Assembly (NCBI GenBank): GCA_043760135.1
Contig: JAYUPL010000005.1
Location: forward strand, 1-59,193
Length of the DNA: 59,193 bases
DNA from: Candidatus Parcubacteria bacterium
Lineage (GTDB): Bacteria; Patescibacteriota; Minisyncoccia; Phycocordibacterales; CAIZLB01
Direction of reading: 5' to 3'
Shown: positions 1 through 29,453 of the stretch, piece by piece
Layout of the letters: every line of letters starts with the position of its first letter
Numbering within the stretch: position 1 is the first letter of the stretch
Translations under genes and position numbers: made by a program
Notes under the pieces: generated by a model
Seen by the model: only the letters and a program-made list of their open reading frames with translations
What the model was told of the DNA's origin: nothing
Database searches by the model: none

Positions 1-97
1 CCAAGGCAGAGCCTTGGGGTATTGACCGTTAACTTCCTCGGTTCGGAAACAAAAGTATACTTACTTTTGTTTCTCTCACTCTACGTCGTTAATAAAT
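1..97 (-). repeat. E1 structured repeat, copy 1 (cut by window edge); candidate small RNA gene or MITE-like element
   Basis: Reverse complement of 1-97 aligns with 29357-29453, roughly 85-90% identical by hand alignment. It contains a 12-bp stem/4-nt loop hairpin at 46-73. Confidence 0.8.
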
Positions 98-219
98 AAA
101 TACAAAAAAACTTTTTAATACAAATTTATTTTATTTATTTATATGGTTGAAAAATTCTGGCATTGTATCAAATTATATTACAGTAATTATACCTTATTTT
201 TTACACAAATAACAATACA

Positions 220-834
220 TTACTCCAAAATAAACCACCCGTGATTCTTTGCATACACCCTCAACTTTTTATTTGGATTTACCGTATACCTGTACGTCGC
301 CATTTTCAACAATGGAATATCCGAGTTATGATCACTATAAGCAAAAGACCCTTCAAAGTTATACTTACTTAACCGCTCCGCTTTTTCATCTTTATAATTT
401 ATCTTTCCTAAAATCTTACCAGTATACTTATTATTCTTTACCTCAAGTTTCGTCGCTGCATACTCTGGGATATGAAAAAACTTAGCTGCATATTTTGCAA
501 TCGGTTCAAATGAAGTTGTAACCAGGACGACTTTTTTATCATGTGTATTATGTTTTTCTAACTCTTCAACTGCTCGCATATTTTTAATACTATCAAATTC
601 TGTAAAAATAAAAGCTTTCATTATCTTATCGAGTCTATGTACATCAACATTTTTAAAAACTCGTGCCAAATGATTCATTTTTTTATCGATATTTCGAGCA
701 AAAAATAAAATAAATTTATAGTAAAAAAAACGATACCACGATATAATCCTCCTTCGTCTTAAAACGGTAAGAACTATTTCATAACTATTTTTTGTGATAA
801 GGGTTTTATCTAAATCAAAGAATACATAACTCAT
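220..834 (-). CDS. HAD-IB family hydrolase (phosphoserine-phosphatase-like)
   Basis: 204-aa ORF with FFDLDKTLI (DxDxT) near the N-terminus and YSDHNSDIPLL (HAD motif IV) near the C-terminus. Confidence 0.75.
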   Translation of the reverse strand: MSYVFFDLDKTLITKNSYEIVLTVLRRRRIISWYRFFYYKFILFFARNIDKKMNHLARVFKNVDVHRLDKIMKAFIFTEFDSIKNMRAVEELEKHNTHDKKVVLVTTSFEPIAKYAAKFFHIPEYAATKLEVKNNKYTGKILGKINYKDEKAERLSKYNFEGSFAYSDHNSDIPLLKMATYRYTVNPNKKLRVYAKNHGWFILE

Positions 835-877
835 AGAGTAGATATTATATGCTATTTTTTATGTTTTGAGCATTGAC

Positions 878-1615
878 CTATTCCCAAATTTTATCCATAG
901 TGATTGATGCTATTTTCTTGTATCGCATAATATCATTTTTATACATTTCATCATTTTTTAATATATTCAAGGTATCCTCAATTGATATTATATTTCTATA
1001 TTTAACTTCAAGCAGTGGCCTTTGAAATATTGCAACTTTAAACCAATTTACAGTACGAAAACCTTTAAGTTGTACAGGTACAATATCAGTGTGCGTGTGT
1101 TCAGCCAAAAAACCAACCCCACCCTTCGCCTCTCCTGGTTTGAAAGTTTCCATACCCATTTTTCCTTCAGGAAAAATACAAACCGCTTTTCCGTTTTCTA
1201 GCAGTTCAACATGATTGATCAAGGAAGCTTGATAGTCACGCATACCAAGATATGCTGAGTATGCACCTAAAAGACGGAAAAATGATCCTCCATAGAAATG
1301 TTTTCTCCATCCAAATTTTCCTGTTTGATAATGATCTTTTGTCATCGAAACATAATACATCGGCATAATTGGAATGATAAATGGTAGACCAAATCTCACC
1401 ATCAACACATCCATCTCACTAATATGATTTGGTGCAAATAATATACCTTTCTCGTTTTTTTTATATTCTTTTAATTTTTCAACAAGCTCCGTTCTCCCTT
1501 CGATTTTTAATTTAAAAAATATGTTAACAAAAGCTAAAACAACAACTCCAATTGTAAACTGTAGTAGTATCTGTATGTATTCTATGTTGTGGTGTTTTTG
1601 AGATCCTATACTCAT
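878..1615 (-). CDS. lysophospholipid (1-acyl-sn-glycerol-3-phosphate) acyltransferase family protein
   Basis: 245-aa ORF with an N-terminal TM helix, NHISEMD (HX4D) and FPEGK acyltransferase motifs. Confidence 0.7.
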   Translation of the reverse strand: MSIGSQKHHNIEYIQILLQFTIGVVVLAFVNIFFKLKIEGRTELVEKLKEYKKNEKGILFAPNHISEMDVLMVRFGLPFIIPIMPMYYVSMTKDHYQTGKFGWRKHFYGGSFFRLLGAYSAYLGMRDYQASLINHVELLENGKAVCIFPEGKMGMETFKPGEAKGGVGFLAEHTHTDIVPVQLKGFRTVNWFKVAIFQRPLLEVKYRNIISIEDTLNILKNDEMYKNDIMRYKKIASITMDKIWE

Positions 1616-1625
1616 ATTTACTTAA

Positions 1626-4268
1626 TTATAGCACTTTTTTTAGATAATGTCCAGTGAAGCTGTTTTTGTTGTTTGCAACCTCCTCAGGAGTCCCTTTAGC
1701 TATAAGCTGTCCGCCCTTATCCCCTCCATCAGGACCGATATCTATGATGTAATCCGAACATTTGATTAGGTCCATATTGTGTTCGATTACCACCACTGTA
1801 TTACCTGCCTGTACGAGTCTTTGTAGGATTTCGATAAGTTTTCGTACATCATGATAGTGTAACCCAACTGTTGGCTCATCAAGAATATAGATCGTTTTCT
1901 GTACATGAGGTTTGTACAATTCTGATGCAATCTTTACACGCTGCGCTTCTCCTCCTGAAAGTGTTGTTGCTGATTGTCCAAGCTCCAAGTATCCAAGTCC
2001 TACCTCTTGCAGTGTTCGCACCCGATCGTATATCTGAGGCATCTCCTCAAAGAATGTAACCGCTGCATCAACTGTCATAGTGAGGATGTCATGGATGTTT
2101 TTATTTTTATACATGATTTCTAACGTCTCCTTCATAAATCTTTTTCCATTACATACATCACATTGAACATAGACTGTTGGCAAGAAGTGCATTTCAACTT
2201 CAATCGATCCGTTTCCTTGGCAGTTTTCACAACGTCCACCTTTCACGTTGAATGAAAATCGTCCTGGACCCCATGCCCTTGATTTTGCTTCAATTGTTTC
2301 AGCAAACAAATCACGAATATGTGTAAACGCTCCGGTATAAGTTGCAGGGTTTGAACGTGGAGTTCGGCCGATCGGTGATTGATCAATCATGATCGTTCGC
2401 CCAACATAATCAGTTCCCGTAAAAGTTGTACAGTTATAGATCTGACTTGTTCGATGTTCACGATCAAGTTTTCCTAACAAGTTTTTATATAAGATCTCAT
2501 ACACGAAAGTTGATTTTCCTGAACCAGATACTCCGGTCACAGTCACAAGACGACCAAGTGGTAATTCGACATTTAGATTTTTAATATTGTTCGCTTTTCC
2601 TCCCGCTATTTTTATAAACCCTTTATCTTGTTTTCGTCTTTCTTTTGGAACTTCTACTTCATGTGCACCTCGTAAATAATCTAGTGTAAGCGAACCGGTA
2701 AATGAATCAGGATCAGCGTGTTTTTTATTTATAGGAAGAGACTTGATCGGATCACGTAATAGATCTTTCAGATATCCTTGCACCACCACATTTCCTCCGT
2801 TTATACCCGCTCTTGGACCGATATCAATAAGATAGTCAGAAGCTAAAATAGTATCTTCATCATGCTCTACAACGATCACTGTATTTCCCATATCTTTGAG
2901 TTGAATAAGAGTTTTTATCAACTTATCATTATCTCTTTGATGTAGACCAATAGTTGGTTCATCAAGCACATACAATGCACCTACAAGTCCAGAACCAAGC
3001 TGTGAAGCCAGTCTAATACGTTGTGACTCCCCTCCTGAAAGTGTGTGAGCTCTTCGATTTAATTGTAAATAATCAAGACCAACTTCTTGCATGAACTCGA
3101 GACGAGACAAAATTTCTTTAATCATCACAGTTGATATAGCTTTATCTGTTGGCGATAATTCGAGAGACAATACATAGTCTATCGCTTCGTGGATTGTAAG
3201 ATTTGTGAAATCAATCACGTTGGTTTTACCCGGCATATAAACTTTCAAAGCTTCAGGTCGAAGACGTGCACCATCACACACTTTACAAATTCTATTTGTA
3301 AAGAAACTATCTGTTCCTAGACCATTACATTCTGGACAAGCACCGTATGGAGAGTTGAAAGAAAACAGTCTTGGCTCGATTTCAGGGAATGAAAAACCAT
3401 CGTATGGACACATAAATTTTGAAGAGATAAGATGTTCTTCTTTATCTGTATAAATACGTAATAATCCATCAGCTTCTCTGAGAGCTCGCTCAATAGAATC
3501 ATTTAATCTTTCCTTAAAACTTTGTGAAGGTTCTTTTATTTCTGAAATGTAAAATTGATCGATTAGGATATCAATAGTATGTTTTTTTGTTTTTGTTAAT
3601 TCTATTTTCTCACGAAGTTTTTGAACCTTTCCATCTATGCGCACTTCTTCAAATCCCTTACCTAGATAATCGTAAAGTAGTTGGTAGTATTCACCTTTTC
3701 TTCCAATAACCACTGGTGCATAAATTTTAAATATTTCTGAATCAACATGGACTCCCATGATTTCTTTTTTACCTTTTAATTCTGTTGTCTTGATAGACTT
3801 CACGATATTGTGAATTGTGTCGACTATTTCTTCTTTCGACAGTCTTTTTATTTCTCGATCACATGTTAAACAGTGTGGTTTTCCAACACGGGCATATAGA
3901 ATACGCAGGTAATCGTAAATTTCTGTAATAGTTGCAACAGTTGAACGAGGGTTATTTGATCTTGATTTTTGATCTATGGAAATTGCAGGAGATAAACCAG
4001 TAATCTCATCCACATCTGGTTTTTGCATTTGTTTTAAAAATTGTCGCGCATATGAAGACAATGATTCCATATATCTTCTTTGTCCTTCAGCAAAGATAGT
4101 GTCGAACGCAAGAGAAGATTTTCCTGATCCTGAAAGTCCAGAAATAACTGTCATTTGACCACGAGGAATAGACACATCAATATCTTTGAGGTTATGTGTT
4201 CGTGCACCCTTAACATGAATCATATCCAGGTCTATACCTGATTTAGTCTTTTTAGGGGCATTCTTCAT
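1626..4268 (-). CDS. uvrA: excinuclease ABC subunit A
   Basis: Two ABC modules (GLSGSGKSS, GVSGSGKST, LSGGE twice) and CxxC zinc-finger pairs. Start moved from 4313 to MKNAPKK at 4268 because 4297-4335 is a terminator hairpin. Confidence 0.95.
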   Translation of the reverse strand: MKNAPKKTKSGIDLDMIHVKGARTHNLKDIDVSIPRGQMTVISGLSGSGKSSLAFDTIFAEGQRRYMESLSSYARQFLKQMQKPDVDEITGLSPAISIDQKSRSNNPRSTVATITEIYDYLRILYARVGKPHCLTCDREIKRLSKEEIVDTIHNIVKSIKTTELKGKKEIMGVHVDSEIFKIYAPVVIGRKGEYYQLLYDYLGKGFEEVRIDGKVQKLREKIELTKTKKHTIDILIDQFYISEIKEPSQSFKERLNDSIERALREADGLLRIYTDKEEHLISSKFMCPYDGFSFPEIEPRLFSFNSPYGACPECNGLGTDSFFTNRICKVCDGARLRPEALKVYMPGKTNVIDFTNLTIHEAIDYVLSLELSPTDKAISTVMIKEILSRLEFMQEVGLDYLQLNRRAHTLSGGESQRIRLASQLGSGLVGALYVLDEPTIGLHQRDNDKLIKTLIQLKDMGNTVIVVEHDEDTILASDYLIDIGPRAGINGGNVVVQGYLKDLLRDPIKSLPINKKHADPDSFTGSLTLDYLRGAHEVEVPKERRKQDKGFIKIAGGKANNIKNLNVELPLGRLVTVTGVSGSGKSTFVYEILYKNLLGKLDREHRTSQIYNCTTFTGTDYVGRTIMIDQSPIGRTPRSNPATYTGAFTHIRDLFAETIEAKSRAWGPGRFSFNVKGGRCENCQGNGSIEVEMHFLPTVYVQCDVCNGKRFMKETLEIMYKNKNIHDILTMTVDAAVTFFEEMPQIYDRVRTLQEVGLGYLELGQSATTLSGGEAQRVKIASELYKPHVQKTIYILDEPTVGLHYHDVRKLIEILQRLVQAGNTVVVIEHNMDLIKCSDYIIDIGPDGGDKGGQLIAKGTPEEVANNKNSFTGHYLKKVL

Positions 4269-4275
4269 AAACTTA

Positions 4276-4284
4276 AATATATCA
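4276..4284 (-). promoter_or_regulatory. extended -10 element (TGATATATT) 7 nt upstream of the uvrA ATG
   Basis: The minus strand reads TGATATATT-TAAGTTT-ATG. There is no Shine-Dalgarno sequence in between. Confidence 0.45.
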
Positions 4285-4296
4285 TAAATTTGGATA

Positions 4297-4335
4297 GAAA
4301 AAAGGACCGCCAACCCTGTATGAGGGTGACGGTCC
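4297..4335 (-). terminator. rho-independent terminator of the GC-rich AK-like gene
   Basis: The minus strand reads GGACCGTCACCCTCATACAGGGTTGGCGGTCC followed by TTTTTT. Confidence 0.8.
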
Positions 4336-4382
4336 GATGTTGGTTTTTTTTGGAGTGTTGTTGGATGACGCTCCGGGGTTAG

Positions 4383-5156
4383 TTAGTGCCGCCAAGCTGG
4401 TGGACCACCGTGAGGATGGACCAAATGACGAGCTGCAAGAAGATCAAGATGAGGACGACCCACCTTCTTCCTCCGCTTTGACTGCTGGAATGAACCATGC
4501 TCACCCCATTGCTCGTTGAGCATTTGGATATGCTGGTTCAAAGTCCTGACAATAACCTTGTGCACATCTTGAGGTGATGCCTCGCCATTGATGTGAACAA
4601 GATCAACACCCTTCGCCCTGAGCTTTTTGTGAACAGCATCTTTGTGATCAAGCCAGCTTCTGTAACGGCCGCGGACAACTGCAGAATCGAAATCGTCAGA
4701 CCGTTTTTCTTCTTCGGCGCGTTGCTCGGCGCGTTTCAGCGCAACTTCTTCGGGAATGAAGATGCTAAACGCCAAAAGCATTCGTGGTCGAGCAAAGATA
4801 GTATCAATCTGGTCCGCTTGATACCGGGTGCGGACAAGTCCGTCCCCGATATAAACCGGCTTACCGCCGTTCGGGAGAGATAAACTGTTTCCGTGGGTAA
4901 TAATATCAGGAATTGTCTCGCGGACCAGTTGGAACACAACCTTATCAGGGAGGTACTTCCCGGAATCCAAAAACTTGCCATAGTCGGCATCGAAAACACT
5001 GCAGTCTTGACGTTTTTTACGCGCCAGGTCACCGGTGGAAATATGAACCGCTCCGTGAGGAGTAAGCAGTATTGACTGTTTTCCCTTGCCGCAAGCAACA
5101 GGGCCGTCCATGATGATCGCAAATCCTTGATCAGGAGTATTAATAATGTGACACAT
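4383..5156 (-). CDS. adenylate-kinase-like P-loop NMP kinase with a basic C-terminal tail (GC-rich cassette 1)
   Basis: 257-aa ORF with GPVACGKGKQS (compare the AK P-loop GxPGxGKGT), ISTGDLARKK, LDSGKYLPDKVV, and no long LID. About 50 extra C-terminal residues (SKRRKKVGRPH...HPHGGPPAWRH). G+C is about 50% against AT-rich flanks. Confidence 0.6.
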   Translation of the reverse strand: MCHIINTPDQGFAIIMDGPVACGKGKQSILLTPHGAVHISTGDLARKKRQDCSVFDADYGKFLDSGKYLPDKVVFQLVRETIPDIITHGNSLSLPNGGKPVYIGDGLVRTRYQADQIDTIFARPRMLLAFSIFIPEEVALKRAEQRAEEEKRSDDFDSAVVRGRYRSWLDHKDAVHKKLRAKGVDLVHINGEASPQDVHKVIVRTLNQHIQMLNEQWGEHGSFQQSKRRKKVGRPHLDLLAARHLVHPHGGPPAWRH

Positions 5157-5236
5157 AAACTCAATATTGTTTTTGTTTTGATTTTTATATAGGGCATGAA
5201 AATGGGGCCACCCAAATCCAAGACTATATCATACCT

Positions 5237-5265
5237 AACAAAAGCCCTGAGGTCAACCTCTGGGC
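5237..5265 (-). terminator. rho-independent terminator after uvrB
   Basis: The minus strand reads GCCCAGAGGTTGACCTCAGGGC followed by TTTTGTT, 10 nt after the uvrB stop. Confidence 0.75.
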
Positions 5266-5274
5266 TTTATATCT

Positions 5275-7317
5275 TTATTTTGTCTTCCCTTCAATCATCT
5301 TAGCTATCGCCTTAATCTCATCCCTCAATATCGCTGCTGTTTCAAAATCCAACTCTTGGACTGCAATCTCCATATACCTCTCCTTTCTTTTCAAGATAAT
5401 TTTTATATCCTTCATCTTAATATTCTTCACATTATCAAGATCAATATCAATAGAAAGCATGCGCTTCACTGTTTTTTCATGAGTTGATTCAATTGATGAA
5501 GTAATATCTTGTATACTTTTCTTGATCGAACGTGGGGTTATATTATTTTCTTTATTATATTTTTCTTGTATAGTCCTTCTTCTATTAGTTTCATCGATCG
5601 CATATGTAAGTGAATCAGTCATAGTATCAGCATACAAAATAACTCTCCCATTTAAGTTACGGGCTGCACGACCTATTGTTTGAATAAGTGCTGTTCTCGA
5701 TCTCAAGAAACCTTCCTTATCTGCATCTAATATTCCAATCAAAGAAACCTCAGGTAAATCTAATCCCTCGCGCAATAAGTTAACTCCCACCAGCACATCA
5801 AAATCTCCTCTTCGTAGTTCAGTCAAGATTTGTATTCTTTCAAGTGTCTCAATATCACTGTGCAAATATCTTGTTTTAATATTTTTCTCTTTTAAGAATT
5901 CTGATAAATCCTCGGCCATTCTTTTGGTTAGCGTTGTAGCCAGAGCTCTCTCTCCTTTTGCAACAACTTTTGTCACCTCTTCAATAAAATCATAAATCTG
6001 TCCAATATACGTATCGGTTGCCACCACTGGTTTTACTTCAAGGATAGGATCCACAAGACCAGTAGGGCGAATAATTTGTTGAATAATGTCCTTAGGGGGA
6101 GTTATCTCATATTCATATTTTCCAGGAGTTGCAGATACATATATTGTTTGATCTATTTTCCCTTTAAACTCTTCAAACTTAAGAGGTCTGTTATCAGCAG
6201 CTGACGGTAAGCGAAATCCAAAATCAATAAGATTCTTTTTACGAGAAGCATCTCCAGCATACATACCACCTATCTGAGGAACAGTCACGTGGGACTCGTC
6301 TATCACCGTTAAAAATCCATCTGGAAAATATGACAACAATGTATCCGGTGCCTCACCAACTTTTTTACCAGCAAAATGTCGTGAGTAGTTTTCAATACCA
6401 TTACAATATCCAACTTCTTTTATCAAAGCTAAATCGTATGTTGTTCTTCTCTTTAATCTTTGATATTCGACTTCTTTATTTTCGGCTTTTAATTCTTTCA
6501 ATCTTTCTTCCAACTCTTTTTTTATATCTTCATACGCACGCAACCTTTCTGTATCAGACGTCATAAAATGTTTTGCTGGAAAAATAAATACAGAATCCAT
6601 ATCCGGTTCCAAAATAACACGAGTTATGTGATCTATTTTTTCTATACGGTCTATAGTATTCATTGAAAAAATAAGTCGATACACGATACGTTCGTGTATT
6701 GGCATGATTTCTATATTATTTCCAACTACACGAAATTGCCCCTGACCTAAATCAGCTAATGTTCGAGAAAATTGCATTTGGATTAATTTTTTTGAAATCT
6801 CACTTCTGTCGAGAACTGCCCCTTTTCTAATTATAAAATTTGTTTCTTCATATTGCTTCGGTGAACCTAAACCATAAATACAAGATACTGATGATACAAT
6901 AATCACATCATCACGTGTAAGTAGTGCCTGAGTTGAAGCGTGACGAAGGCGATCAATCTCTTCGTTGATCTGAGCTTCCTTTTCTATGTATGTATCAGAG
7001 TGAGATACATAGGCTTCTGGCTGATAATAATCATAGTAGGATACAAAATAATGCACCTCATTGTCTGGGAAAAATTCTTTAAACTCTTGAGCGAGCTGAG
7101 CGGCCAAAGTTTTGTTATGAGCAATAACCAAGGTTGGTTTTTGAACTTGCTGAATTACATTGGCAATAGTGAATGTCTTACCTGTACCCGTTGCACCCAA
7201 AAGAGTCTGGTTTTTTAAACCCTTTTTTATCCCTTTTACAAGAGATTCTATAGCCTTTGGTTGATCACCGAGCGGTCTATGGTCATGTTTTAGGTTAAAT
7301 GCTTTGTGAATTCTCAT
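5275..7317 (-). CDS. uvrB: excinuclease ABC subunit B
   Basis: 680 aa with GATGTGKTF Walker A, DESH box (IDESHVT), helicase C motifs and a C-terminal UVR domain. Confidence 0.95.
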   Translation of the reverse strand: MRIHKAFNLKHDHRPLGDQPKAIESLVKGIKKGLKNQTLLGATGTGKTFTIANVIQQVQKPTLVIAHNKTLAAQLAQEFKEFFPDNEVHYFVSYYDYYQPEAYVSHSDTYIEKEAQINEEIDRLRHASTQALLTRDDVIIVSSVSCIYGLGSPKQYEETNFIIRKGAVLDRSEISKKLIQMQFSRTLADLGQGQFRVVGNNIEIMPIHERIVYRLIFSMNTIDRIEKIDHITRVILEPDMDSVFIFPAKHFMTSDTERLRAYEDIKKELEERLKELKAENKEVEYQRLKRRTTYDLALIKEVGYCNGIENYSRHFAGKKVGEAPDTLLSYFPDGFLTVIDESHVTVPQIGGMYAGDASRKKNLIDFGFRLPSAADNRPLKFEEFKGKIDQTIYVSATPGKYEYEITPPKDIIQQIIRPTGLVDPILEVKPVVATDTYIGQIYDFIEEVTKVVAKGERALATTLTKRMAEDLSEFLKEKNIKTRYLHSDIETLERIQILTELRRGDFDVLVGVNLLREGLDLPEVSLIGILDADKEGFLRSRTALIQTIGRAARNLNGRVILYADTMTDSLTYAIDETNRRRTIQEKYNKENNITPRSIKKSIQDITSSIESTHEKTVKRMLSIDIDLDNVKNIKMKDIKIILKRKERYMEIAVQELDFETAAILRDEIKAIAKMIEGKTK

Positions 7318-9461: not shown

Positions 9462-9501
9462 TACTGGTCAATAGTTACTCATTGTTTATTTACGTATGAC
9501 A

Positions 9502-9562
9502 CTTTGTCCTAGACAAAGCGGTCCTCAAAAGAAGCTATCCTAGATAGCTTCTTTTGAGGACC
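9502..9562. repeat. two adjacent hairpins: 7-bp stem (9502-9518) and a perfect 20-bp stem / 3-nt loop palindrome (9520-9562)
   Basis: CTTTGTC-CTA-GACAAAG followed by GGTCCTCAAAAGAAGCTATC-CTA-GATAGCTTCTTTTGAGGACC. They lie between the pyk stop and the radC promoter, and no U-tract follows. Confidence 0.85.
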
Positions 9563-9581
9563 TCTGATCGAAATGAGTAAA

Positions 9582-10961
9582 TTAAACAATGCTATACATC
9601 AGTTGTCCGTCTTTTTCTTCACAAAGCATGATTTTTTCTTGTGACCCTAGACCAACTGAATCTTTAATTTCCGAAACTGTCCCTGTTGTAGCTAAAACTG
9701 GTAACAACCCGTATCCAAGACGCATGTTTCTAAAGTCCATAATATCAGCTGCTCCAGCATATACAGTTGCAGTTGGATGGAAGGCTGATATAGCTTTATT
9801 GGCCTCAAGAGAGATTTTTGTAACAATAGCTGTCACATGCTCTGCTGCAGCTTTTGCAACTACATCTTTTGCCCACATGTAGATAGGAGATGTTGAAACT
9901 GGTTCCGCTGTAAAATGAACAAGCTCAGCTCTTTTGTCTTCAGTATATTTCATAATGCGATGCATTACATTTGTAGCCTCAAGAGGATAATCACCAAACG
10001 CCGTTTCATCACTCATAGAGATACCATGAGTTCCATCAAGTACTGCATTTGCAACATCACAAACTTCAGCACGTGTTGGAGATGGATTCTTAACCATGTT
10101 TTTCAACACTTGAGTTGCAACGATACAATATTTTCCTTTTTTCAAAGTTGATTCAACCATTTTCTTTTGCATGTATGGTAATTCTTCAAGTGGAACTTCG
10201 GCCATAAGGTCTCCTCGAGCAACCATCAAACCATCACAGTTATCAAGAATAATATCTCTATTATCAAAACCTTCACGGTTTTCAATCTTAGCAATAATCT
10301 TACCTTTATATTCAGGATATTCTTTTAGAATTTCTTTGATATCATCTAAATCCTGAACGTTTCGAACGAAAGAGTGAATGATAAAGTCGATATTGTTTTT
10401 TGCACAAAAATGAATAAATCCTACATCCTTTGGCGTAAGTGAAGGGAGATTAATGTGTACATTTGGCACATTCAAACTTTTTTTACTTTTAATAAGTCCA
10501 TCATTTTTCACAACACATTTGATACCATTTGCAACAATTTCCTCTACAATAAATGAAATAGAGTTATCATCGTAACTTATAAGTTCTCCAACAGGGATTT
10601 CATTATGAAAATTTGGATAATCAACACCAATAATATTTTCACCCACTTGCCCAGCAATTTGAGAGAGATCACCTGTAAATACAACATGACTTCCTTTTGT
10701 AACTTCAAAAAGAATCTCGATACCTTTTGTACGAGTCTCTGGACCTTTTGTATCAAGCAAGATACACATCTTTTGATCTGATACTGCTCTTATTGTATTA
10801 ACAACTCTAATAGCTTCCTCCTCACCCTGATGTGCAGTGTTCAACCACATTACATCTACTCCAGCCTCGATAAGAGATTTTAGATATTCAGGAGCGGCAT
10901 TATTATCTGCGATTTTTGCTATAATTTTGGATTTTCGCCCATGTACTTGTGATTGAATCAT
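9582..10961 (-). CDS. pyk: pyruvate kinase
   Basis: 459 aa with KIIAKI..., LLDTKGPETRT and MVARGDL motifs. Confidence 0.9.
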   Translation of the reverse strand: MIQSQVHGRKSKIIAKIADNNAAPEYLKSLIEAGVDVMWLNTAHQGEEEAIRVVNTIRAVSDQKMCILLDTKGPETRTKGIEILFEVTKGSHVVFTGDLSQIAGQVGENIIGVDYPNFHNEIPVGELISYDDNSISFIVEEIVANGIKCVVKNDGLIKSKKSLNVPNVHINLPSLTPKDVGFIHFCAKNNIDFIIHSFVRNVQDLDDIKEILKEYPEYKGKIIAKIENREGFDNRDIILDNCDGLMVARGDLMAEVPLEELPYMQKKMVESTLKKGKYCIVATQVLKNMVKNPSPTRAEVCDVANAVLDGTHGISMSDETAFGDYPLEATNVMHRIMKYTEDKRAELVHFTAEPVSTSPIYMWAKDVVAKAAAEHVTAIVTKISLEANKAISAFHPTATVYAGAADIMDFRNMRLGYGLLPVLATTGTVSEIKDSVGLGSQEKIMLCEEKDGQLMYSIV

Positions 10962-21727: not shown

Positions 21728-21736
21728 ATTATATCA
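21728..21736 (-). promoter_or_regulatory. extended -10 element (TGATATAAT) 6 nt upstream of the transketolase GTG
   Basis: The minus strand reads TGATATAAT-ACAGCA-GTG. Confidence 0.45.
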
Positions 21737-21744
21737 TGAAGTGA

Positions 21745-21822
21745 GTTTAATGAGCGAGCCGACCCGTAAGAATTTTCTTTAGAAAATTCTGAGGACTTCT
21801 CGGCGGAGCAAAGAGAATGAGC
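21745..21822 (+). repeat. E2 structured repeat, copy a
   Basis: About 86% identical by hand alignment to 57247-57322 in the same orientation. The hairpin is AGAATTTTC-TTTA-GAAAATTCT nested in GCCGA...TCGGC. It abuts the stop codon of the 169-aa ORF. The + strand reads ATG..MSEPTRKNFL-TAG. Confidence 0.8.
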
Positions 21823-22332
21823 TTATTTTAAAATGATACGAGCATAAACTTTATAATCAGATTTTGTATCAACAATCAACACATACCTATATTCTGCAAA
21901 TGAAATATCACCTCCCTTCATATCAATCACATATTGCATTATTGATTCATTTTTTACCAATGTTCCGAAGTCGATATATTCAGTCGTACTTATTACCTCC
22001 GGTGTATTTGTTAGCCAAATATTTAAATCAGCATTTGGATTGGCCACTTCAACAGACAGAATCAATTTGCCATTTAATTTTTCCAACGTTACCTTGCGAA
22101 CAATATTTGTCTTCGTATCACTATTGTATACTGTAGAAGTATTCTTTATCTGACCCTGACTATTGTATGGATATATAGCATTTACCTGATCAACATAATC
22201 AGTACCGATTTGAAACGGAGATTTATTTGGACCAATAACTAAATTTGTCAAAGCAGGTAGAAATACAAGTGCTTTTATAGCAAGATAAAAAATAATCAAT
22301 ACAAGAATAAGACCAATAACTTTTTTAATCAT
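21823..22332 (-). CDS. hypothetical membrane-anchored protein
   Basis: 169 aa with an N-terminal TM helix and a beta-rich extracytoplasmic part. No motif recognised. Confidence 0.6.
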   Translation of the reverse strand: MIKKVIGLILVLIIFYLAIKALVFLPALTNLVIGPNKSPFQIGTDYVDQVNAIYPYNSQGQIKNTSTVYNSDTKTNIVRKVTLEKLNGKLILSVEVANPNADLNIWLTNTPEVISTTEYIDFGTLVKNESIMQYVIDMKGGDISFAEYRYVLIVDTKSDYKVYARIILK

Positions 22333-22341
22333 GCTCTCATT

Positions 22342-23055: not shown

Positions 23056-23057
23056 AT

Positions 23058-23522
23058 TTATTTGTTTTCTATTTTTGTTAATCGTCTTATGTGTCTTTCT
23101 TCATTTGAAAAATTCTCATCGAGCCAGATCTGCACAATCTCTAGAGCATGTCTTTGTTCAATAAATCGTGCACCAAGGGACATAACATTAGCATTATTAT
23201 GCTGTCTGCTCAACTTGGCGATCTGAGTATTTAGTTCTATATCATTTCCATATATAAGTGCTGATCTTACGTTTTTAAACCTGTTCACACAGATGTTTTC
23301 ACCTTGTCCTGAGCCGCCAATGACTATACCTCGATATTGCTTAGAATTGTTGTGTTCAGAAATGTACTCACCGACCATTTTTATATAATCAGGATAATCA
23401 TCATGTTCATTATATATACCATTTCCAATATCAACAACATCATACCCCTTGTCTTGCAATGAGGTTACAAGATACTTTTTCAATTCGAATCCAGCATGAT
23501 CTGAGGCGATTACGATTTTCAT
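23058..23522 (-). CDS. rpiB: ribose-5-phosphate isomerase B
   Basis: 154 aa with MKIVIASDHAGFELK and GGSGQGENI motifs. Confidence 0.9.
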   Translation of the reverse strand: MKIVIASDHAGFELKKYLVTSLQDKGYDVVDIGNGIYNEHDDYPDYIKMVGEYISEHNNSKQYRGIVIGGSGQGENICVNRFKNVRSALIYGNDIELNTQIAKLSRQHNNANVMSLGARFIEQRHALEIVQIWLDENFSNEERHIRRLTKIENK

Positions 23523-23561
23523 GGAGTAATTATAGCATGAACTGGTTTTTCCCCTAAACCT

Positions 23562-23595
23562 AAAAGAAAAAGAGCCTAGACTTTTTCGTCTAGGC
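23562..23595 (-). terminator. rho-independent terminator
   Basis: The minus strand reads GCCTAGAC-GAAAAA-GTCTAGGC followed by TCTTTTTCTTTT. Confidence 0.75.
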
Positions 23596-23616
23596 GGCTT
23601 TTTCGAGAGGGTTTAT

Positions 23617-24369
23617 TTAGTTTAAAACTGGCATTGGGAATTCTGTTCCTGGGCACAATAACATATTCATTTGTCTTTGTGTTGTTTTATAGAAATATCC
23701 TGTTGAATAATCTATTCCCCATGGAGTTAGAACATTAGTTCTATATTTCAATTGGAAAGTTTTAACAGCATCAAAAGTCATATTTCCGAAGAATCCTGTT
23801 GTTGGGATGTTAAGACCTAGGTTTCCATTTAGGAAAGCTTGTAATCTTTTAACCTCGGCTACATTATTTTTTCTACCTTTTTTCATAAAAGTTTTCATAG
23901 TATCACATGTAGATGTTGATGTAATAACATTAGATACAGGTGTACCTGAAGTTATTCCAGAGAACCCACCAACTGGACCACTACCGAATGAAGATCCAAC
24001 TACTCCACCGCCTCCAGAAACTGGTGGTACTGGTGTTGTTGTAGTTGTAGTAGCAGTTGAAGTTGCATTAAAAGCAGCACAATCTGGATCAGCAACTCCT
24101 GTTAGGAAGTCACCGTCAGCATCTGTACCTGCAGCACATGATGCAGCAGTTTCTACAGAAGATGTAGGTATTGTAGTAGTAGCAGTTGTAGTTGCATTAA
24201 AAGCAGTACAATCTGGATCAGCAACTCCTGTTAGGAAGTCACCGTCAGCATCTGTACCAGCAGCACATGAAGCAGTAGTTTCTACAGCTACAATTGCAGC
24301 CTTAGTTGTTACAGTTAATAATGTCGATAGCGTTAAAAGCATTATCAGTAAAAATGTTGTTTTTTTCAT
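23617..24369 (-). CDS. secreted repeat protein with C-terminal peptidoglycan-binding (PG_binding_1-like) domain
   Basis: 250 aa with a signal peptide and two 43-aa Cys/Asp-rich repeats (SCAAGTDADGDFLTGVADPDC.AFNAT). Thr- and Gly-rich linkers follow, then VKRLQAFLN...GFFGNMTFDAVKTFQ. Confidence 0.75.
   Translation of the reverse strand: MKKTTFLLIMLLTLSTLLTVTTKAAIVAVETTASCAAGTDADGDFLTGVADPDCTAFNATTTATTTIPTSSVETAASCAAGTDADGDFLTGVADPDCAAFNATSTATTTTTTPVPPVSGGGGVVGSSFGSGPVGGFSGITSGTPVSNVITSTSTCDTMKTFMKKGRKNNVAEVKRLQAFLNGNLGLNIPTTGFFGNMTFDAVKTFQLKYRTNVLTPWGIDYSTGYFYKTTQRQMNMLLCPGTEFPMPVLN
24062..24287. repeat. near-identical tandem repeat, 129-bp period, inside the 250-aa CDS
   Basis: 24062-24158 and 24191-24287 differ at only a few positions. 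Confidence 0.9.
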
Positions 24370-24422
24370 AATGGATTGAGTGTACCACAGAAGATAATCT
24401 TGTCAAGTGTTCTACGTGATGC

Positions 24423-24457
24423 AAAAGAAAAAGCCGGTCACCCTGTGAGGGATGACC
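24423..24457 (-). terminator. rho-independent terminator of GC-rich cassette 3
   Basis: The minus strand reads GGTCATCCCTCACAGGGTGACC followed by GGCTTTTTCTTTT. Confidence 0.8.
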
Positions 24458-24480
24458 AACTTGTAGTGGAAGGTGCGGAT

Positions 24481-25866
24481 TTAGGGTTTAAGCCCTTTAA
24501 TCCTCCAGAAACGTTTGAGGTCGCTGGTAATTGGGAACGTAACGGTTGCATCTGGAGCAACAGTGACATCTGTGGCATTATCCCAGTCGGCCAAATTGAC
24601 GGATGTTTCCACCCACCAGCTTTTACGATACGAATCGGCCGTAAGACCGGTGGTTGTGATAGTACCAGTCCCACCAGCACGGATAAACGATGTTTTTGGA
24701 TTGTTAGGATACTCCGTCGTCACCCCAATCACAGGATATGCCGTCTCGTTGACCAATTTCACCATTGCCGATTGATCGTTCGCCGAGAATGAGAACGACA
24801 TCGTCGCCCCATCGATTGTATAGGTGCCGGACAAACTCCGGTAGAGCACCCAATAGTCGCCAACAAGGACCAACTGCGGAAGCACCGCCTTCTGCTCGGT
24901 AATCAAGAATTCCTTGATGTTCGGGATTGAAGTCCCGACCAGATTGGAATTGATGGGCACGATCAGATTGCCGGCGAAGTCCCGAGCAAAGATGCTCGGC
25001 AGAGACACATCCCCTTCAGGATTGAACTTAGACTGAGCCATGTTCACTCCGACCGGGTTATGAATGGTGTAGTCGTTGTCGATCCAACTCTCAACTGCAA
25101 AGGAAGCTGCCGTGAAGGTCACCGAGGTGGTGTCTTCAGGGAATACAATCTTTGCCGCGAATGATGCATACGTCGCAGTGCCCTTTGCAGTGTCTTCAAC
25201 CTTCCTCAACGAGGAGAGGCTGTCCAGCCGATTTTCGGTCGCCGGAAAGACGTCTGCATAGAATTTGATCACCGGAGTTGCAACAACCTTGACTCGTGCA
25301 GCCTGGTCTTGAAAGGAGAACAGGATTGGAGTCCCGCTGCCTACCGTATAGGTACCTGACAAACTCCGGTACAATACCCAGTAGTCGCCTGCAAAAACCA
25401 GCGGTGGAAGGTCTTTCTGTTGCTCAGTAATGAAGAACTCTTTGGTATTCGGAATTGCAGTCCCGACCAGATTCGCAGCAGGTACCACCAAGTCGTTGGC
25501 GAAGTTCCGAACAAAGATGCTCGGGACAGTCGCGTCGCCTTCGGGGTTAAACTGAGAAGTGGCCATATTGACACCGACCGGATCGTGCTGGATGTAGTCA
25601 CCGTTGCACCATGATTCGACGGCGTAGCTCGCTCCCGTGAAGGTGACCGAGGTCGTTCCTTCGGGGAATACAATTTTTGCTGCAAAACTAGCGTAGGTTG
25701 CCGAAGCAACCTCCGTATCCTTGAGGTTTTTGACGGAAGACAGAACATCCAAGCGATTTTCAGTCGCTGATGATGAGCTGTCGGCATAGGTTGTCATCAC
25801 AGGTTGAGCTGTGGCAACGAGACTCGCAACAAGTGCAAGTCCCAGATGGACGATTTTAGTTTTCAT
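24481..25866 (-). CDS. secreted tandem-domain protein, adhesin-like (GC-rich cassette 3)
   Basis: Start set at MKTKIVHLGLALVASLVATAQP (signal peptide). Two units of about 175 aa are each about 60% identical, followed by a C-terminal beta domain of about 85 aa ending LKRFWRIKGLKP. G+C is about 45-50%. Confidence 0.75.
   Translation of the reverse strand: MKTKIVHLGLALVASLVATAQPVMTTYADSSSSATENRLDVLSSVKNLKDTEVASATYASFAAKIVFPEGTTSVTFTGASYAVESWCNGDYIQHDPVGVNMATSQFNPEGDATVPSIFVRNFANDLVVPAANLVGTAIPNTKEFFITEQQKDLPPLVFAGDYWVLYRSLSGTYTVGSGTPILFSFQDQAARVKVVATPVIKFYADVFPATENRLDSLSSLRKVEDTAKGTATYASFAAKIVFPEDTTSVTFTAASFAVESWIDNDYTIHNPVGVNMAQSKFNPEGDVSLPSIFARDFAGNLIVPINSNLVGTSIPNIKEFLITEQKAVLPQLVLVGDYWVLYRSLSGTYTIDGATMSFSFSANDQSAMVKLVNETAYPVIGVTTEYPNNPKTSFIRAGGTGTITTTGLTADSYRKSWWVETSVNLADWDNATDVTVAPDATVTFPITSDLKRFWRIKGLKP
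24742..25800. repeat. internal duplication: two units of about 525 bp encoding the paralogous domains of the 461-aa protein
   Basis: ENRLD.LSS...TYASFAAKIVFPE.TTSVTFT...GDYWVLYRSLSGTYT recurs with a 175-aa period. Confidence 0.8.
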
Positions 25867-25932
25867 GATGTTGATGATTTTCTGATTTTCTGGGAACCTT
25901 GACCATTTTTGATTCAAGATGCTGACTCAAAT

Positions 25933-25960
25933 ATAATACATTATTTCTATATTTTGTCAA
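25933..25960 (-). promoter_or_regulatory. sigma70-like promoter TTGACA-16-TATTAT for the GC-rich cassette 3 gene
   Basis: On the minus strand, TTGACA is at 25955-25960 and TATTAT at 25933-25938, in an AT-rich spacer. Confidence 0.55.
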
Positions 25961-25974
25961 TAGTTACCACCTAC

Positions 25975-27582
25975 CTATTGAAGATCCATCAACGGGTCAA
26001 TATAGTGAGCTGAAATACCTCCGAAGTTTTTACTACCTTTAAACTGATTATTTATGATATTGATCTGATTGATATAATTCGCTTTTGATGTTTGATAGAA
26101 AGTTACATAACCCGGTTCAACATTTCCAGTCTCTTGTCCGACAATAACTTTAGTAGAACCTGTCCCAACCGATGCCTGATCTACTTCAGTTTTTGATATT
26201 AGTATACTTCCATCCGTTCCTTCAGCTTTATTGCGATAAGACATAAGTATTATAGAACTACCCGGTCTTCTATCTAGAATATTAAGTATGTGATTAAAGG
26301 TATAATTACTTGAATTATTATACGTAATAGCAGGAGTCCATCTTTGTGCAGAATCATAGAAATGAGGAATCACAACACTTAGTCGTATATTATTTGACCC
26401 TAGTCTATTTGTTGCATTATTTATAAAATTTACAAAGTTAGTTAGCACCGATGCTTTATTTTGCTCATATCTTGTTAAGAGATACGGTTCAACATCAAAC
26501 TGGAAGGATCGAATTTTATTTGCACGAGAATTATTGTATTCAATAGCATAATCTATAACAACATTTGCTTTGGTTGCATTTGGATCCTCTGCCCAATCAC
26601 GCCAACCTGCTTCCACATCAACCTGTATATTGTTCTTATTAGCCAATATTATAAAATTTTCCAACGCATCAGAGTATCTTCTTTTCTTCGTATCTTTATC
26701 TAACCCTGCTGGCAGACTGTTGATTGCTAAGTAATCATCAATTGTTATGTAGATCACATTTATTTTGTTAGCAACAGCACCGGCAATAACCTTATCTCTA
26801 TACGTTGCAGACATTGCATAAGGTGATGTCCATACCCATGTACCATATTCCCTCGTATCAGGATTAAAAGGTGTAACTTCACCAACCACAGCAACAGGAT
26901 CATTAACCACAGGCGATTCCACTACAGGAGCACTAGCAATTGGTGCACTTGTAGTTGTACCTAAATTTGATACTAGTGTCGCACAAGCGTCTTCAGAATC
27001 GTCCGCAGTGGCACACGCTTCAGTTTGTACAGAATTTAAAGATACATCTCCTGCCTTATATGTTGTACTAAATGAAATACTCTTAGTGATACCCTGCAAT
27101 ATATCGCCAAGCACCCAGTAGTAATTAGAAGCTGATGGTTTTGGAACAGATGATACAAAAGATTGATTATTTGAATAATAAACAGAAATACTTGCATTCA
27201 CACATGTCTCTGCACCTGCATTTTTAACATCCATTGTATAGTTCGAATTTGAACCTAATGAAAAAACATCTTTATCTAATTTAAAAGTAAGTGCCAAACT
27301 ACAGTTTTCTCCCCCGGCTGTACCAGCAAAAGATGATAGGGGCTTTGAAACAATTTCACCGACCACAACCACAGGTTTACGATCCCTTTTAGAAACCGAA
27401 CCTACCGCCTCCCCTTTGGATACAGTAGTAGTGTCCGAAAGCTGTCCAAGCTTTACATCGACCTCTTTAATTTCCATAGCACTGTCTGTGGATGATAAAT
27501 TTTGAATTACTAATGCAGAAAGTAACAAAAACGAAATTATTCCTAATACCTTTATTTTGTTGTTTGTTAAATTATTTTTCAT
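25975..27582 (-). CDS. secreted protein: N-terminal DUF11/CARDB-like beta domain plus C-terminal TIM-barrel glycoside-hydrolase-like domain (putative)
   Basis: 535 aa with a signal anchor and a Cys-bracketed beta domain. The C-terminal 300 aa show alternating beta/alpha periodicity (VIYITIDDY, QVDVEAGW, FQFDVEPY, LSVVIPHFY, IILMSYR). It lies directly downstream of the GT2 synthase. Confidence 0.5.
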   Translation of the reverse strand: MKNNLTNNKIKVLGIISFLLLSALVIQNLSSTDSAMEIKEVDVKLGQLSDTTTVSKGEAVGSVSKRDRKPVVVVGEIVSKPLSSFAGTAGGENCSLALTFKLDKDVFSLGSNSNYTMDVKNAGAETCVNASISVYYSNNQSFVSSVPKPSASNYYWVLGDILQGITKSISFSTTYKAGDVSLNSVQTEACATADDSEDACATLVSNLGTTTSAPIASAPVVESPVVNDPVAVVGEVTPFNPDTREYGTWVWTSPYAMSATYRDKVIAGAVANKINVIYITIDDYLAINSLPAGLDKDTKKRRYSDALENFIILANKNNIQVDVEAGWRDWAEDPNATKANVVIDYAIEYNNSRANKIRSFQFDVEPYLLTRYEQNKASVLTNFVNFINNATNRLGSNNIRLSVVIPHFYDSAQRWTPAITYNNSSNYTFNHILNILDRRPGSSIILMSYRNKAEGTDGSILISKTEVDQASVGTGSTKVIVGQETGNVEPGYVTFYQTSKANYINQINIINNQFKGSKNFGGISAHYIDPLMDLQ

Positions 27583-27612
27583 ATATACCTATATTATATA
27601 TAATATTAATTA

Positions 27613-28971
27613 TTAATCCATAACACCCTTCCTCGCCCATTTTTGCCACTTAACCTCTCGCCGTCTGACCATACCCCAAATAGACTTTACTAAAGCATTG
27701 AATTCAACGAATGTTACAAAGTAAAATAGTAACCATCCAATAGGCAGTAGGATATAAAATGACAAACCTTTCTTTGTTTCTTTATCGTCAAAAAACATTT
27801 GCACAAAAAACATCGTACTCACAACAATAACCCCTGAAATAAAAGATGAAAAATCATTTATCAAATAAGAATATATATAAAGAAAGGTTAAGAAAAATAT
27901 TTCCAGAGAAAGTTGAAGTTCTCCAAAATAAGAAAAAGGTAGGATGATCCAACTTAGAATTTTACGATGGTGTTTTTGAAAACTAAAAAATAGGTCCAGG
28001 TTTTGATTAAAGGTTTCAAAACGCCCACGTTTCCATCTCAATCTTTGATTTAAAAGACCTTGAACCTCATCAGCTCCCTCTGTATAAACCAATGCATCTG
28101 CGGCATATACAATTTTTAAGCCAGCACTCTGTATACGAACAGACAACTCTATATCTTCTGTTATATTCTTTGTATTATACACACCGACTTTTTCAAACGT
28201 TTCTCGACGAAAAGCCCCAGCAGCACCTCCTATAATATATATACTATTCATAATAGAATCAGCTTTTTTAAAATAAAAAGAAAAAAGAAATTCAAGATAT
28301 TGAATAACCCCAATTAGAGTATTTGTATTTCCAACTTTTACATTTCCTACAGCTGCCATAACCTCAGGATTAGCAAAATAACTCACAAATTTTTCTATGG
28401 TATTTTTACAAACAATACAGTCTGCATCTATTGATAATAGTATATCACCTTTAGATAACTCTATTGCTGTATTAAGTGCTGCACCCTTACCTTCATTATG
28501 CTTATAGTTATAAATTATTTCTATAGACTTTTTTACCCCTGATTTTTTAGAATTGTATTTTTCAATAAATGCTTTTATCAAGTTATCAGAATTATCCGTA
28601 GAACCATCATTTACTATAACTAGTTCTATATTTCTATATGTACTTTTTAACAAACTTCGAACCGTAGTAAGTATTCCAATTTCTTCATTCCAAGCAGGTA
28701 TCATAACCGATACCAGTGGTTTATATTTTTTAATCTTAAAGTAATTCTTTGCATTTGAAATAGCAACCGACACGTCATACCAAGGACTTATAAACATATA
28801 TAAAAAATATTTACCAAGGAGTATACTGGAGAAGAAAATAATTATACCTCTCAAAATAGGAAATTGATAATCGTTATTTGGTGTAAGTATAAAAACCGAA
28901 AAAATAATCTGAAAAGTAATCAAATAAAGTAAAATATAAATGGATATTTTATTGATTTTATTTTTATCCAT
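27613..28971 (-). CDS. processive family-2 glycosyltransferase (PNAG/cellulose/chitin-synthase-like)
   Basis: VSVMIPAWNEE, DGSTD, DADC and QRLRWKRG (QxxRW) motifs, with TM helices at both ends. ATG 28971 overlaps the upstream small ORF stop (ATGGATAA). The ORF could extend to 29022. Confidence 0.85.
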   Translation of the reverse strand: MDKNKINKISIYILLYLITFQIIFSVFILTPNNDYQFPILRGIIIFFSSILLGKYFLYMFISPWYDVSVAISNAKNYFKIKKYKPLVSVMIPAWNEEIGILTTVRSLLKSTYRNIELVIVNDGSTDNSDNLIKAFIEKYNSKKSGVKKSIEIIYNYKHNEGKGAALNTAIELSKGDILLSIDADCIVCKNTIEKFVSYFANPEVMAAVGNVKVGNTNTLIGVIQYLEFLFSFYFKKADSIMNSIYIIGGAAGAFRRETFEKVGVYNTKNITEDIELSVRIQSAGLKIVYAADALVYTEGADEVQGLLNQRLRWKRGRFETFNQNLDLFFSFQKHHRKILSWIILPFSYFGELQLSLEIFFLTFLYIYSYLINDFSSFISGVIVVSTMFFVQMFFDDKETKKGLSFYILLPIGWLLFYFVTFVEFNALVKSIWGMVRRREVKWQKWARKGVMD

Positions 28972-29212
28972 GATTTTTTTCATGCTTATTACAATTAATA
29001 ACATATATACAAATCTTCGCATAAATATTTGAAATTATAATTAATATTATAAATATTGTTATAACTCTATATGAAGTATTTGGAAATGTAGATATCAAAT
29101 AATAACCGATAAAACTTAAAAAAACCAAAGATACTGTCATTAACAAGACTGCTGGTATGATCATACGTATGAATTTGATTGTTCTATCGATCTTCATATC
29201 TAAATTATACAC
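28964..29212 (-). CDS. small two-TM membrane protein, translationally coupled to the GT2 gene
   Basis: 82-aa ORF with two hydrophobic helices and an 8-nt overlap with the GT2 start. Confidence 0.45.
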   Translation of the reverse strand: MYNLDMKIDRTIKFIRMIIPAVLLMTVSLVFLSFIGYYLISTFPNTSYRVITIFIILIIISNIYAKICIYVINCNKHEKNHG

Positions 29213-29356
29213 TATTTTTTAAAAACGTCAAGTACCGTTAGTATACAGATTCCAAATAAGGCAATATATTCAAGGTAGAATGACTATATACTTTTATACC
29301 TTGTAAGACTTATACGTATTTGTAAAAAAATAAAACTACTGTTTCGTTGAACGGTT

Positions 29357-29453
29357 TTATTAACGACGTAGAGTGAGAGAAACAAAAGTGATTACACTTT
29401 TGTTTCCGAACCGAGGAAGTTAACTTTCAATACCCCAAGGCTCTGCGTCGGGG
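29357..29453 (+). repeat. E1 structured repeat, copy 2; candidate small RNA gene or MITE-like element
   Basis: Inverted copy of 1-97 with a 12-bp hairpin at 29379-29406. TTGAAC-16-TAGAGT lies at 29347-29374, and a 3' hairpin ACCCC...GGGGT (29432-29454) is followed by a T-rich tract. Confidence 0.8.

Follow-up and report, generated by a model that had tools for sequence, protein, structure and literature searches.

The closest described counterparts of the element that concerns us here are structured intergenic repeats and multicopy small RNA (sRNA) families. We call this element E; it is present as two inverted copies in 59,193 nt of DNA from Candidatus Parcubacteria bacterium (GenBank assembly GCA_043760135.1, contig JAYUPL010000005.1, positions 1 to 59,193, the whole of which is hereafter the window). 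Repetitive extragenic palindromic (REP) sequences of the REP/REPIN-RAYT systems are 20-40 nt long, carry GTAG at the foot of the stem, usually form close inverted pairs, occur in tens to hundreds of copies and are accompanied by a RAYT gene, whose Y1 HUH transposase mobilizes them. IS200/IS605-type elements have two hairpinned ends, a fixed 4-5 nt target in the left flank and precise junctions. Pneumococcal BOX and RUP, the Neisseria Correia elements and the Rickettsia palindromic elements are modular, structured, dispersed and noncoding, and are sometimes transcribed; among them, Correia and RUP have terminal inverted repeats and TA target duplications. The sRNA families Qrr, LhrC, csRNAs and Escherichia coli QUAD/Sib begin with a 5' stem-loop, continue as a conserved single-stranded stretch and end in an intrinsic terminator; each genome has several near-identical copies, located at fixed loci under defined promoters and regulators. 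Genomes of the Candidate Phyla Radiation (CPR), or Patescibacteria, are small and streamlined, and are usually held to be poor in repeats and regulatory RNAs. E represents a previously undescribed family, so far confined to a small clade of Paceibacteria-like (CPR) genomes.

In kind, E groups with the interspersed structured intergenic repeats and the multicopy sRNA families, while its sequence and architecture are new. Like REP/REPIN-RAYT repeats, it is short, intergenic, terminator-side, hairpin-centered and free of open reading frames (ORFs), carries a GTAG that may correspond to their conserved head, lacks terminal inverted repeats and target duplication, and varies between strains. However, in contrast to REPs, it is ~80-165 nt long, has a 19-nt conserved unpaired tail, and occurs as single units in low copy number with no RAYT seen. 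With the palindrome-associated elements (PATEs) derived from IS200/IS605 and the single-strand transposition model of IS608/ISDra2 it shares subterminal hairpins, strand specificity and the absence of terminal inverted repeats and target duplication. Yet those copies that consist of E only differ from IS200/IS605-type elements in having one hairpin, ragged right ends, no constant target and no TnpA/TnpB nearby. The modularity of the BOX, RUP, Correia and Rickettsia repeats has its parallel in three forms of E (alone, with a terminal hairpin, or with two extra hairpins), but there is no sequence relation, E is limited to a CPR lineage with very small genomes, and it has neither the inverted repeats nor the TA duplications of Correia and RUP. 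The layout and the near-identical copies per genome are those of the multicopy sRNA families; unlike them, E changes position among close relatives, has no conserved -35 box and lacks the terminator in half of its copies. Finally, E resembles bacterial class C group II introns in landing directly after a terminator hairpin and its T run, but this target preference is the only likeness: E is 80 nt long and has no intron domains and no reverse transcriptase. A literature search, by sequence and for CPR repeat elements, found nothing relevant, and searches of phages, plasmids and viral contigs gave no match to E.

The two window copies lie 29.2 kb apart in opposite orientation and are 87-89% identical. 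A repeat search delimits inverted arms at 1-111 and 29341-29451 (111 nt, 87% complementary), and 90 of the 101 columns are identical in a global alignment of copy 1 with copy 2. A covariance model built from 12 copies of E, named R1, matches copy 1 at 23-106 on the minus strand (104.4 bits, E 1.2e-24) and copy 2 at 29346-29429 on the plus strand (104.7 bits, E 9.9e-25), and finds nothing else, diverged copies included, over the 59-kb window. The inverted pair first noticed in a sequence-only reading of this DNA is therefore real. Copy 1 (1-100, minus strand) comprises the 5' module and the start of the 3' hairpin module, its 3' end being lost at the window start, while copy 2 (29355-29465, plus strand, found by R1) is complete with both modules. 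Each carries a 12-bp hairpin with a 4-nt loop exactly where that reading had placed it: GAAACAAAAGTA / AGTA / TACTTTTGTTTC at 46-73 (minus strand) in copy 1, and GAAACAAAAGTG / ATTA / CACTTTTGTTTC, the subject of the covariation analysis below, at 29379-29406 (plus strand) in copy 2. The loops differ, and where copy 1 closes its loop with A-T, copy 2 does so with G-C, again as had been described. The hairpin leads into a conserved, unpaired core, CCGAACCGAGGAAGTTAAC (28-46 in the minus-strand reading of copy 1; 29406-29424, plus strand, in copy 2), whose terminal palindrome GTTAAC forms the right edge of the 5' module. On the other side of the hairpin in copy 2 are a 5' TTAAC (29360-29364, plus strand), which could pair with GTTAA at 29419-29423 and is invariant or G-U in 14/14 copies, and a -10-like hexamer, TAGAGT (29369-29374, plus strand), whose T1, A2 and T6 are retained in most copies. 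The 3' module of copy 2 (29432-29465, plus strand) is the terminator-like hairpin ACCCC...GGGGT followed by GTATTCATTTT, which had been pointed out earlier and is common to copies L004, L008 and L009 (L numbers designate related loci) of the metagenome-assembled genome (MAG) GFS_1662. In copy 1, the corresponding hairpin, ACCCCAAGG-CTCTG-CCTTGG... (1-20, minus strand), is truncated by the window edge. When folded on both strands and compared with shuffled sequence, the window copies reach z-scores of -3.2 to -6.1.

The family extends well beyond the window. Our collection comprises 14 copies, 12 of which were gathered with the 19-nt core as a probe. This search found five copies on five contigs of the Parcubacteria MAG GFS_1662, one each in Paceibacteria JTS-AC102 and MAG SRP220891_co5_90, and copies in three metagenome contigs; one further match, within a Bacillales coding sequence, is due to chance. 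R1 added two copies with a slightly different core, L020 and L028, in relatives fetched via protein neighbors. E is thus present at least five times in one Parcubacteria MAG and at least twice in another, which confirms the suspicion that it is multicopy. Its invariant unit is ~80 nt long and reads TTTATTAAC-GACGTAGRGTGAGNG, hairpin, CCGAACCGAGGAAGTTAAC, with core variants TTTTCGAAC in L020 and L028 and GAGGAGTT in L028, and similarity among copies ends immediately 3' of GTTAAC. Seven of the 14 copies (L003, L006, L011-L013, L020 and L028) consist of this 80-nt unit only and lack a terminator module. The window copies and GFS_1662 copies L008 and L009 have an additional second hairpin (ACCYC...GGGGT) and GTATTCATTT, and L004, L005 and L007 contain an extra 52 nt within the 3' module. 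Folding z-scores of E sequences range from -4.4 to -9.2. As a side observation, the 52-nt block (L004 1376-1427; L007 ~1905-1965) lies between copies of the 7-nt direct repeat ATACCTC and folds into a pair of perfect triloop hairpins, in which differences between L004 and L007 are compensated. It is either a nested mini-insertion or part of an ancestral form that was shortened by deletion between the repeats.

The hairpin of E is maintained by selection through compensatory changes. When the 14 copies are aligned to R1, 97.6% of the alignment cells in the 12-bp hairpin are paired, and at five of the 12 pairs both sides have changed: C-G to U-A (three times), A-U to G-C, A-U to C-G, G-C to A-U (twice) and G-C to A-U at the loop. 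None of 500 shuffles matches the hairpin covariation observed, and sliding the partner strand by 1-3 columns lowers pairing to 38-54%. Selection on structure, which had been proposed from a single pair in the two window copies, therefore stands on five pairs once more copies are compared. One-sided changes number six, and all of them, that of the TTAAC/GTTAA closing stem among them, give G-U or U-G when read along the plus strand of copy 2. None is A-C, the form that a wobble of the opposite strand would take. The two U-G pairs of the 3' hairpin have the same sense and are kept in the GFS_1662 copies (in four of the five sequences aligned). Since the one-sided changes are all G-U in one sense, the form under selection is a single strand, in the copy 2 plus-strand sense.

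Orthologous sites with and without E show that it is an insertion rather than a fixed gene. In the infC-rpmI region, where L003, L006, L014, L020, L022 and the window are syntenic and 85-94% identical in initiation factor IF-3, the spacer is free of E in L014, L022 and the window. There, this unoccupied target (47893-47989, plus strand) contains only a structured stretch that we call module X. By contrast, E sits between infC and module X in L003, and between module X and rpmI in L006 and L020. The latter two have flanks that are 96.5-97% identical, but their copies of E are only 84.7% identical, differing by two compensated stem pairs and at the left junction. With flanks nearly identical and E diverged, either one variant replaced the other or separate insertions occurred at the same point. 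A second target is the spacer between a hypothetical gene and gatB, upstream of the latter (33412-33485, minus strand), which is filled in L028 and empty in L027, L026, L025 and the window. In L028, E is placed precisely at the junction of a terminator (GGACCTTCGGGTCC...TTTTTT) with the sequence that follows downstream; L027 and L028 have identical immediate flanks and are 97.5% identical over the downstream 200 nt. Conversely, the sites occupied in the window are empty in relatives: there is no E after gap in L025-L028, whose GAPDH is 82-97% identical, and none after the HAD gene in L029 and L032, whose HAD protein is 84-88% identical. Both window copies are therefore lineage-specific acquisitions. 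In all, there are four filled/empty contrasts, with flanks up to 97-100% identical.

These contrasts also define the junctions, for which we set the filled sites of L003, L006/L020 and L028 beside the empty ones of the window, L014 and L027. E lacks terminal inverted repeats: its left end, (TTAAC)GACGTAGAGTGAG, is not the reverse complement of its right end, CCGAGGAAG(TTAAC), and only the 5-mers TTAAC/GTTAA match. No target duplication of fixed length is present either, the filled/empty pairs allowing at most 2-3 nt of ambiguous overlap (TTA, TT or none). Right ends are ragged, with GTTAAC followed by 2-8 variable nt. The empty sites read GACATTATTA|TTTTTT, AATAATT(CGATT)|TATTAAT and GGCGTTTTTT|A|TTTTC, and across these comparisons there is no constant flanking target, including in the left flank of L027/L028. 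A piggyBac-like TTAA duplication is ruled out by the empty sites. Nor is E a classical miniature inverted-repeat transposable element derived from a DDE transposon: terminal inverted repeats of ~10 bp or more and a fixed target duplication are absent, although E is short, noncoding, multicopy and polymorphic in presence. The earlier guess of a mobile element was thus right in substance, as the filled and empty orthologous sites show, but not in its classical form. About half of the copies lie directly after a terminator-like hairpin and T run, a picture that selection for harmless sites could also produce.

On this basis, we favor the reading, to which we would give about an even chance, that the two window copies are independent, lineage-specific insertions of a non-autonomous interspersed repeat that is most likely transcribed as an sRNA. 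The selected strand would be the transcript, an RNA of ~75-95 nt starting near the hairpin, downstream of TAGRGT. Its 19-nt purine-rich core would stay unpaired and would be the part recognized by a partner, either protein or RNA. In the subfamily to which the window copies belong, the transcript would end at its own terminator. E would spread by means of a factor supplied in trans and would insert with ragged ends, usually directly behind a terminator-like hairpin and T run. The one-sense wobbles, TAGRGT, the unpaired 19-nt tract and the second hairpin with its G-U pairs and U-rich tail all fit such a small RNA, and the covariation falls on the strand presumed to be transcribed, with five compensated pairs and every wobble in one sense.

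The transcription signals themselves are mixed. The sequence-only reading had proposed a promoter for each window copy, and the motifs are there: TTGAAC-16-TAGAGT (29347-29374) before copy 2 and TTGTAT-16-TAGAGT (complement of 78-105) before copy 1. The -10-like TAGRGT is conserved ~5 nt before the hairpin. That reading had also proposed a layout of 5' hairpin, single-stranded core and terminator, which holds for the window/GFS_1662 subfamily, where two of the 8 bp of the 3' hairpin are G-T, a T-rich tail follows and a terminator scan calls a site at 29440-29464 (plus strand) that covers part of it. Many members (L003, L006, L011-L013, L020 and L028) are entirely without the terminator module. 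As for the alternative closing helix between CGACGTAGAG and CTCTGCGTCG (29364-29373 with 29441-29450), the complementarity exists in copy 2, but the two substitutions that improve this helix come at the expense of the 3' hairpin, whose pairing in copy 1 is perfect. We have dropped it, as it is specific to copy 2 and nothing complementary exists in the GFS_1662 copies.

Several points weigh against a transcribed, trans-mobilized sRNA. The window promoters have only 8/12 matches, fall below the scan threshold and are not called, the other 12 copies have no conserved -35 box, and the terminator module is absent from 7/14 copies. When duplex energy was used to look for targets of the core across the window, no site stood out or was linked to a start codon. 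The invariance of the core is partly an artefact, since it served as the probe by which 12 of the 14 copies were gathered. G-T wobbles are tolerated in single-stranded DNA too, so that the strand asymmetry is no proof of RNA. No mobilizing gene is found in the window (~40 ORFs, Pfam) or beside the other copies (10 ORFs). Finally, one point in favor is weakened: the 45 nt upstream of E do fold better, with a mean of -7.5 kcal/mol, than random 45-mers from the same loci at -4.5 kcal/mol (P ~0.0006), but since these controls include coding DNA the enrichment of terminators is only indicative.

The strongest competitor is a purely selfish DNA of the REP or IS200-IS605 (HUH Y1) type, in which the hairpin and its flanks would be the site of a single-strand transposase and any transcript would be incidental. 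We consider this possible but rather unlikely. Much of the architecture would suit it. Terminal inverted repeats and target duplication are absent, and the hairpin is subterminal with conserved flanks and strand-specific stem conservation. GTAG lies 8 nt from the stem, ahead of it, in 11/12 copies of alignment A2 and also in L020 and L028. E is intergenic, found at terminators and polymorphic in position, and the perfect triloop hairpins of the long variants resemble DNA palindromes. However, we found no RAYT, Y1 or TnpB gene in the 59-kb window or beside the E copies, and the window (~40 ORFs in Pfam scans) encodes no transposase, integrase or HUH protein. The ragged ends (GTTAAC plus 2-8 nt) are at odds with the precise junctions of IS200/IS605, and L027/L028 have no fixed 4-5 nt left-flank target. 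Two hairpins are present in the window and GFS_1662 copies but only one in L003, L006, L011-L013, L020 and L028, which nevertheless include recent insertions. Close inverted doublets of the REPIN type are missing, since R1 finds only single units, and copy number is low. The window copies have opposite orientations within one replichore, as judged from the uniform GC skew, instead of a strict lagging-strand bias. The G-T pairs and T-rich tail of the 3' hairpin suit an RNA terminator, not a DNA site.

More adventurous versions of the sRNA reading are decidedly unlikely, in our estimate. E could be a self-spreading sRNA gene, in which the transcript rather than the DNA would be copied and re-inserted behind terminators (in the manner of a short interspersed nuclear element or a retro-mobile element), or its 19-nt tail could serve a CPR-specific RNA-binding or RNA-guided protein as a handle. 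The ragged junctions, the missing inverted repeats and duplications, the terminator-side landing, the replacement of one variant by another and the RNA-type wobbles are compatible with these versions, but are not proof of them. If either version were true, it would be a new way for regulatory RNA to move in an ultra-small genome.

We give as little credence to E being a cis-acting cassette, that is, a portable terminator, insulator or 3'-end stabilizer for neighboring, mostly convergent genes. Seven of ~10 copies do face the 3' end of a convergent gene, sometimes only 2-12 nt from its stop codon (L003, L009, L011, L012 and window copy 2), and a second repeat family in the same genomes, described below, is clearly terminator-like. 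Yet the main hairpin is A/U-rich with no proper U run after it in either orientation, its wobbles become A-C mismatches in the sense of the convergent gene, and the 19-nt core and 5' flank are conserved beyond the needs of a terminator. Moreover, E usually lands beside a pre-existing terminator, and three of its insertions (L003, L006 and L020) lie within the infC-rpmI-rplT operon, in which termination would do harm.

A vertically inherited family of sRNA paralogues that arose by local duplication and is not mobile is very improbable. It would account for L011 and L012, in which E is found at one shared orthologous site, downstream of the gene for ribosomal protein S6. Against it stand the four filled/empty contrasts, which it would survive only if all empty sites were precise deletions, the two E variants occupying one site, and the insertions at two points of the same 100-nt spacer.

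E has next to no chance of being a diverged known class (5S fragment, tRNA-like, attC or type I toxin-antitoxin), given that the core CCGAACCGAGGAAGUUAAC resembles loop C/helix III of 5S rRNA (CCGAAC..GAAGUUAAG in Bacillus subtilis), but the 5S model has no match and a hairpin replaces the missing helix III partner strand; that the TTAAC...GTTAA ends recall attC R''/R' boxes, but TATTAAC and GTTAACN violate RYYYAAC / GTTRRRY, the inner flanks are unpaired and the copies are dispersed rather than arrayed; and that the GFS_1662 copies contain a 38-codon reverse-strand ORF, but this is broken in both window copies. As the loops differ in length by 1, 3 and 4 nt, every frame is shifted and no reading frame is conserved, in agreement with the sequence-only reading. 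Both the frame between the TTAAC motifs and the reverse-strand ATGAATACACCCC ORF are broken by the loop indels and window copies, and a type I toxin-antitoxin locus was rejected along with coding potential. Rfam at the gathering threshold does not match E in the whole window or in eight related loci, and with the cutoff relaxed to E < 10, copy 2 and the long variant L007 have CncR1 as their best match (22.8 bits against a threshold of 76), with no 5S, tRNA or other class; no match thus explains E. A tRNA-like or tmRNA identity was discarded as ARAGORN and Rfam return true tRNAs only, the sole match of Rfam 15 and ARAGORN over the window being a tRNA-Ser located elsewhere.

The biological interest of the family lies in its being dispersed, actively relocating and structurally constrained, and common to several related uncultured genomes. 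If transcribed, it would be among the first candidate multicopy sRNA families in CPR, and the 19-nt tract could be used to fish for its partner. If instead it is mobilized as single-stranded DNA, it would point to an unrecognized HUH-type activity in CPR genomes. In practical terms, E is a marker of strain-level variation and an obstacle to short-read assembly. Short-read (Logan) contigs of the same organism, L001 and L002, stop within each of the window copies, which shows that E breaks assemblies as had been anticipated. Its inverted homologies could also rearrange the chromosome. Inversion between copies 1 and 2 is possible in principle, but of the suggested inversion of the 29-kb segment we see no sign. 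The gene order gatB-def-gap...rpiB-rpe-tkt-scpB is the same in L025, which is without E, and GC skew is negative throughout the window with no step.

Copy 1 lies ~110 nt downstream of a HAD hydrolase gene, in the same direction. Copy 2 is antisense to the genes on either side of it, lying between the start of a GT2 (glycosyltransferase) gene and the stop codon of gap. Just past the HAD stop codon, ~75 nt upstream of copy 1 and in the same direction, is a strong promoter-like site, TTGTTA-18-TATAAT (186-215, minus strand, 10/12 matches). A similar TATAAT precedes the next gene in relatives, and copy 1 may be in the 5' leader of a gene beyond the window start. Close homologues of this HAD gene are mostly on very short contigs (1-7 kb), which suggests that assemblies of related genomes, too, break repeatedly in this neighborhood. 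Near the other end of the window, TTTCCGAAAAGTTAAC (57150-57175, minus strand) resembles the E core minus CCGAGG, with no adjacent hairpin and no R1 match. The resemblance is probably due to chance, or the sequence is possibly a decayed remnant.

Module X, the landing zone of E in the three relatives L003, L006 and L020, is itself structured. It spans 47893-47965 (plus strand, ~70 nt) between infC (47311-47892) and rpmI (from ~47990), and has an AATAATG...CATTATT closing stem and a GGAAC-GTAT-GTTCC inner hairpin. The module is kept in all relatives examined. Rfam at E < 10 gives no L20-leader or other match for it. It probably serves the rpmI-rplT genes as a leader or terminator.

The second structured repeat family has copies in the window at ~9500-9580, 21747-21816 and 57248-57317 (all on the minus strand), and also in L029 (~10470-10560) and L032 (~2165-2250), each just past the stop codon of a gene on the same strand. 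In each, a perfect hairpin is enclosed by the conserved flanks CTCATT...AGAAGTCCTC and GCGGRT...CTCATT; the hairpin varies in sequence among copies while complementarity is kept. Rfam gives no match to this family, which has the look of a conserved terminator module or of another dispersed element.

The window as a whole is ordinary CPR/Patescibacteria chromosome with ~35% G+C, in which nearly all genes are on the minus strand. Its genes include uvrA, uvrB, adk, pyk, an mraZ-mraW-ftsW-murG cluster, scpAB, tkt, rpe and rpiB, as well as gap, def, gatB, obg, rnc, dnaE, infC-rpmI-rplT and ribonucleotide reductase. Two adjacent minus-strand ORFs (23617-24369 and 24481-25917) contain direct repeats, 125-128 nt long and 78-92% identical, at 24034-24287 and 24818-25473. 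The products are likely surface or cell-wall proteins, one of them with a peptidoglycan-binding domain, and this region is the G+C maximum of the window (0.41).

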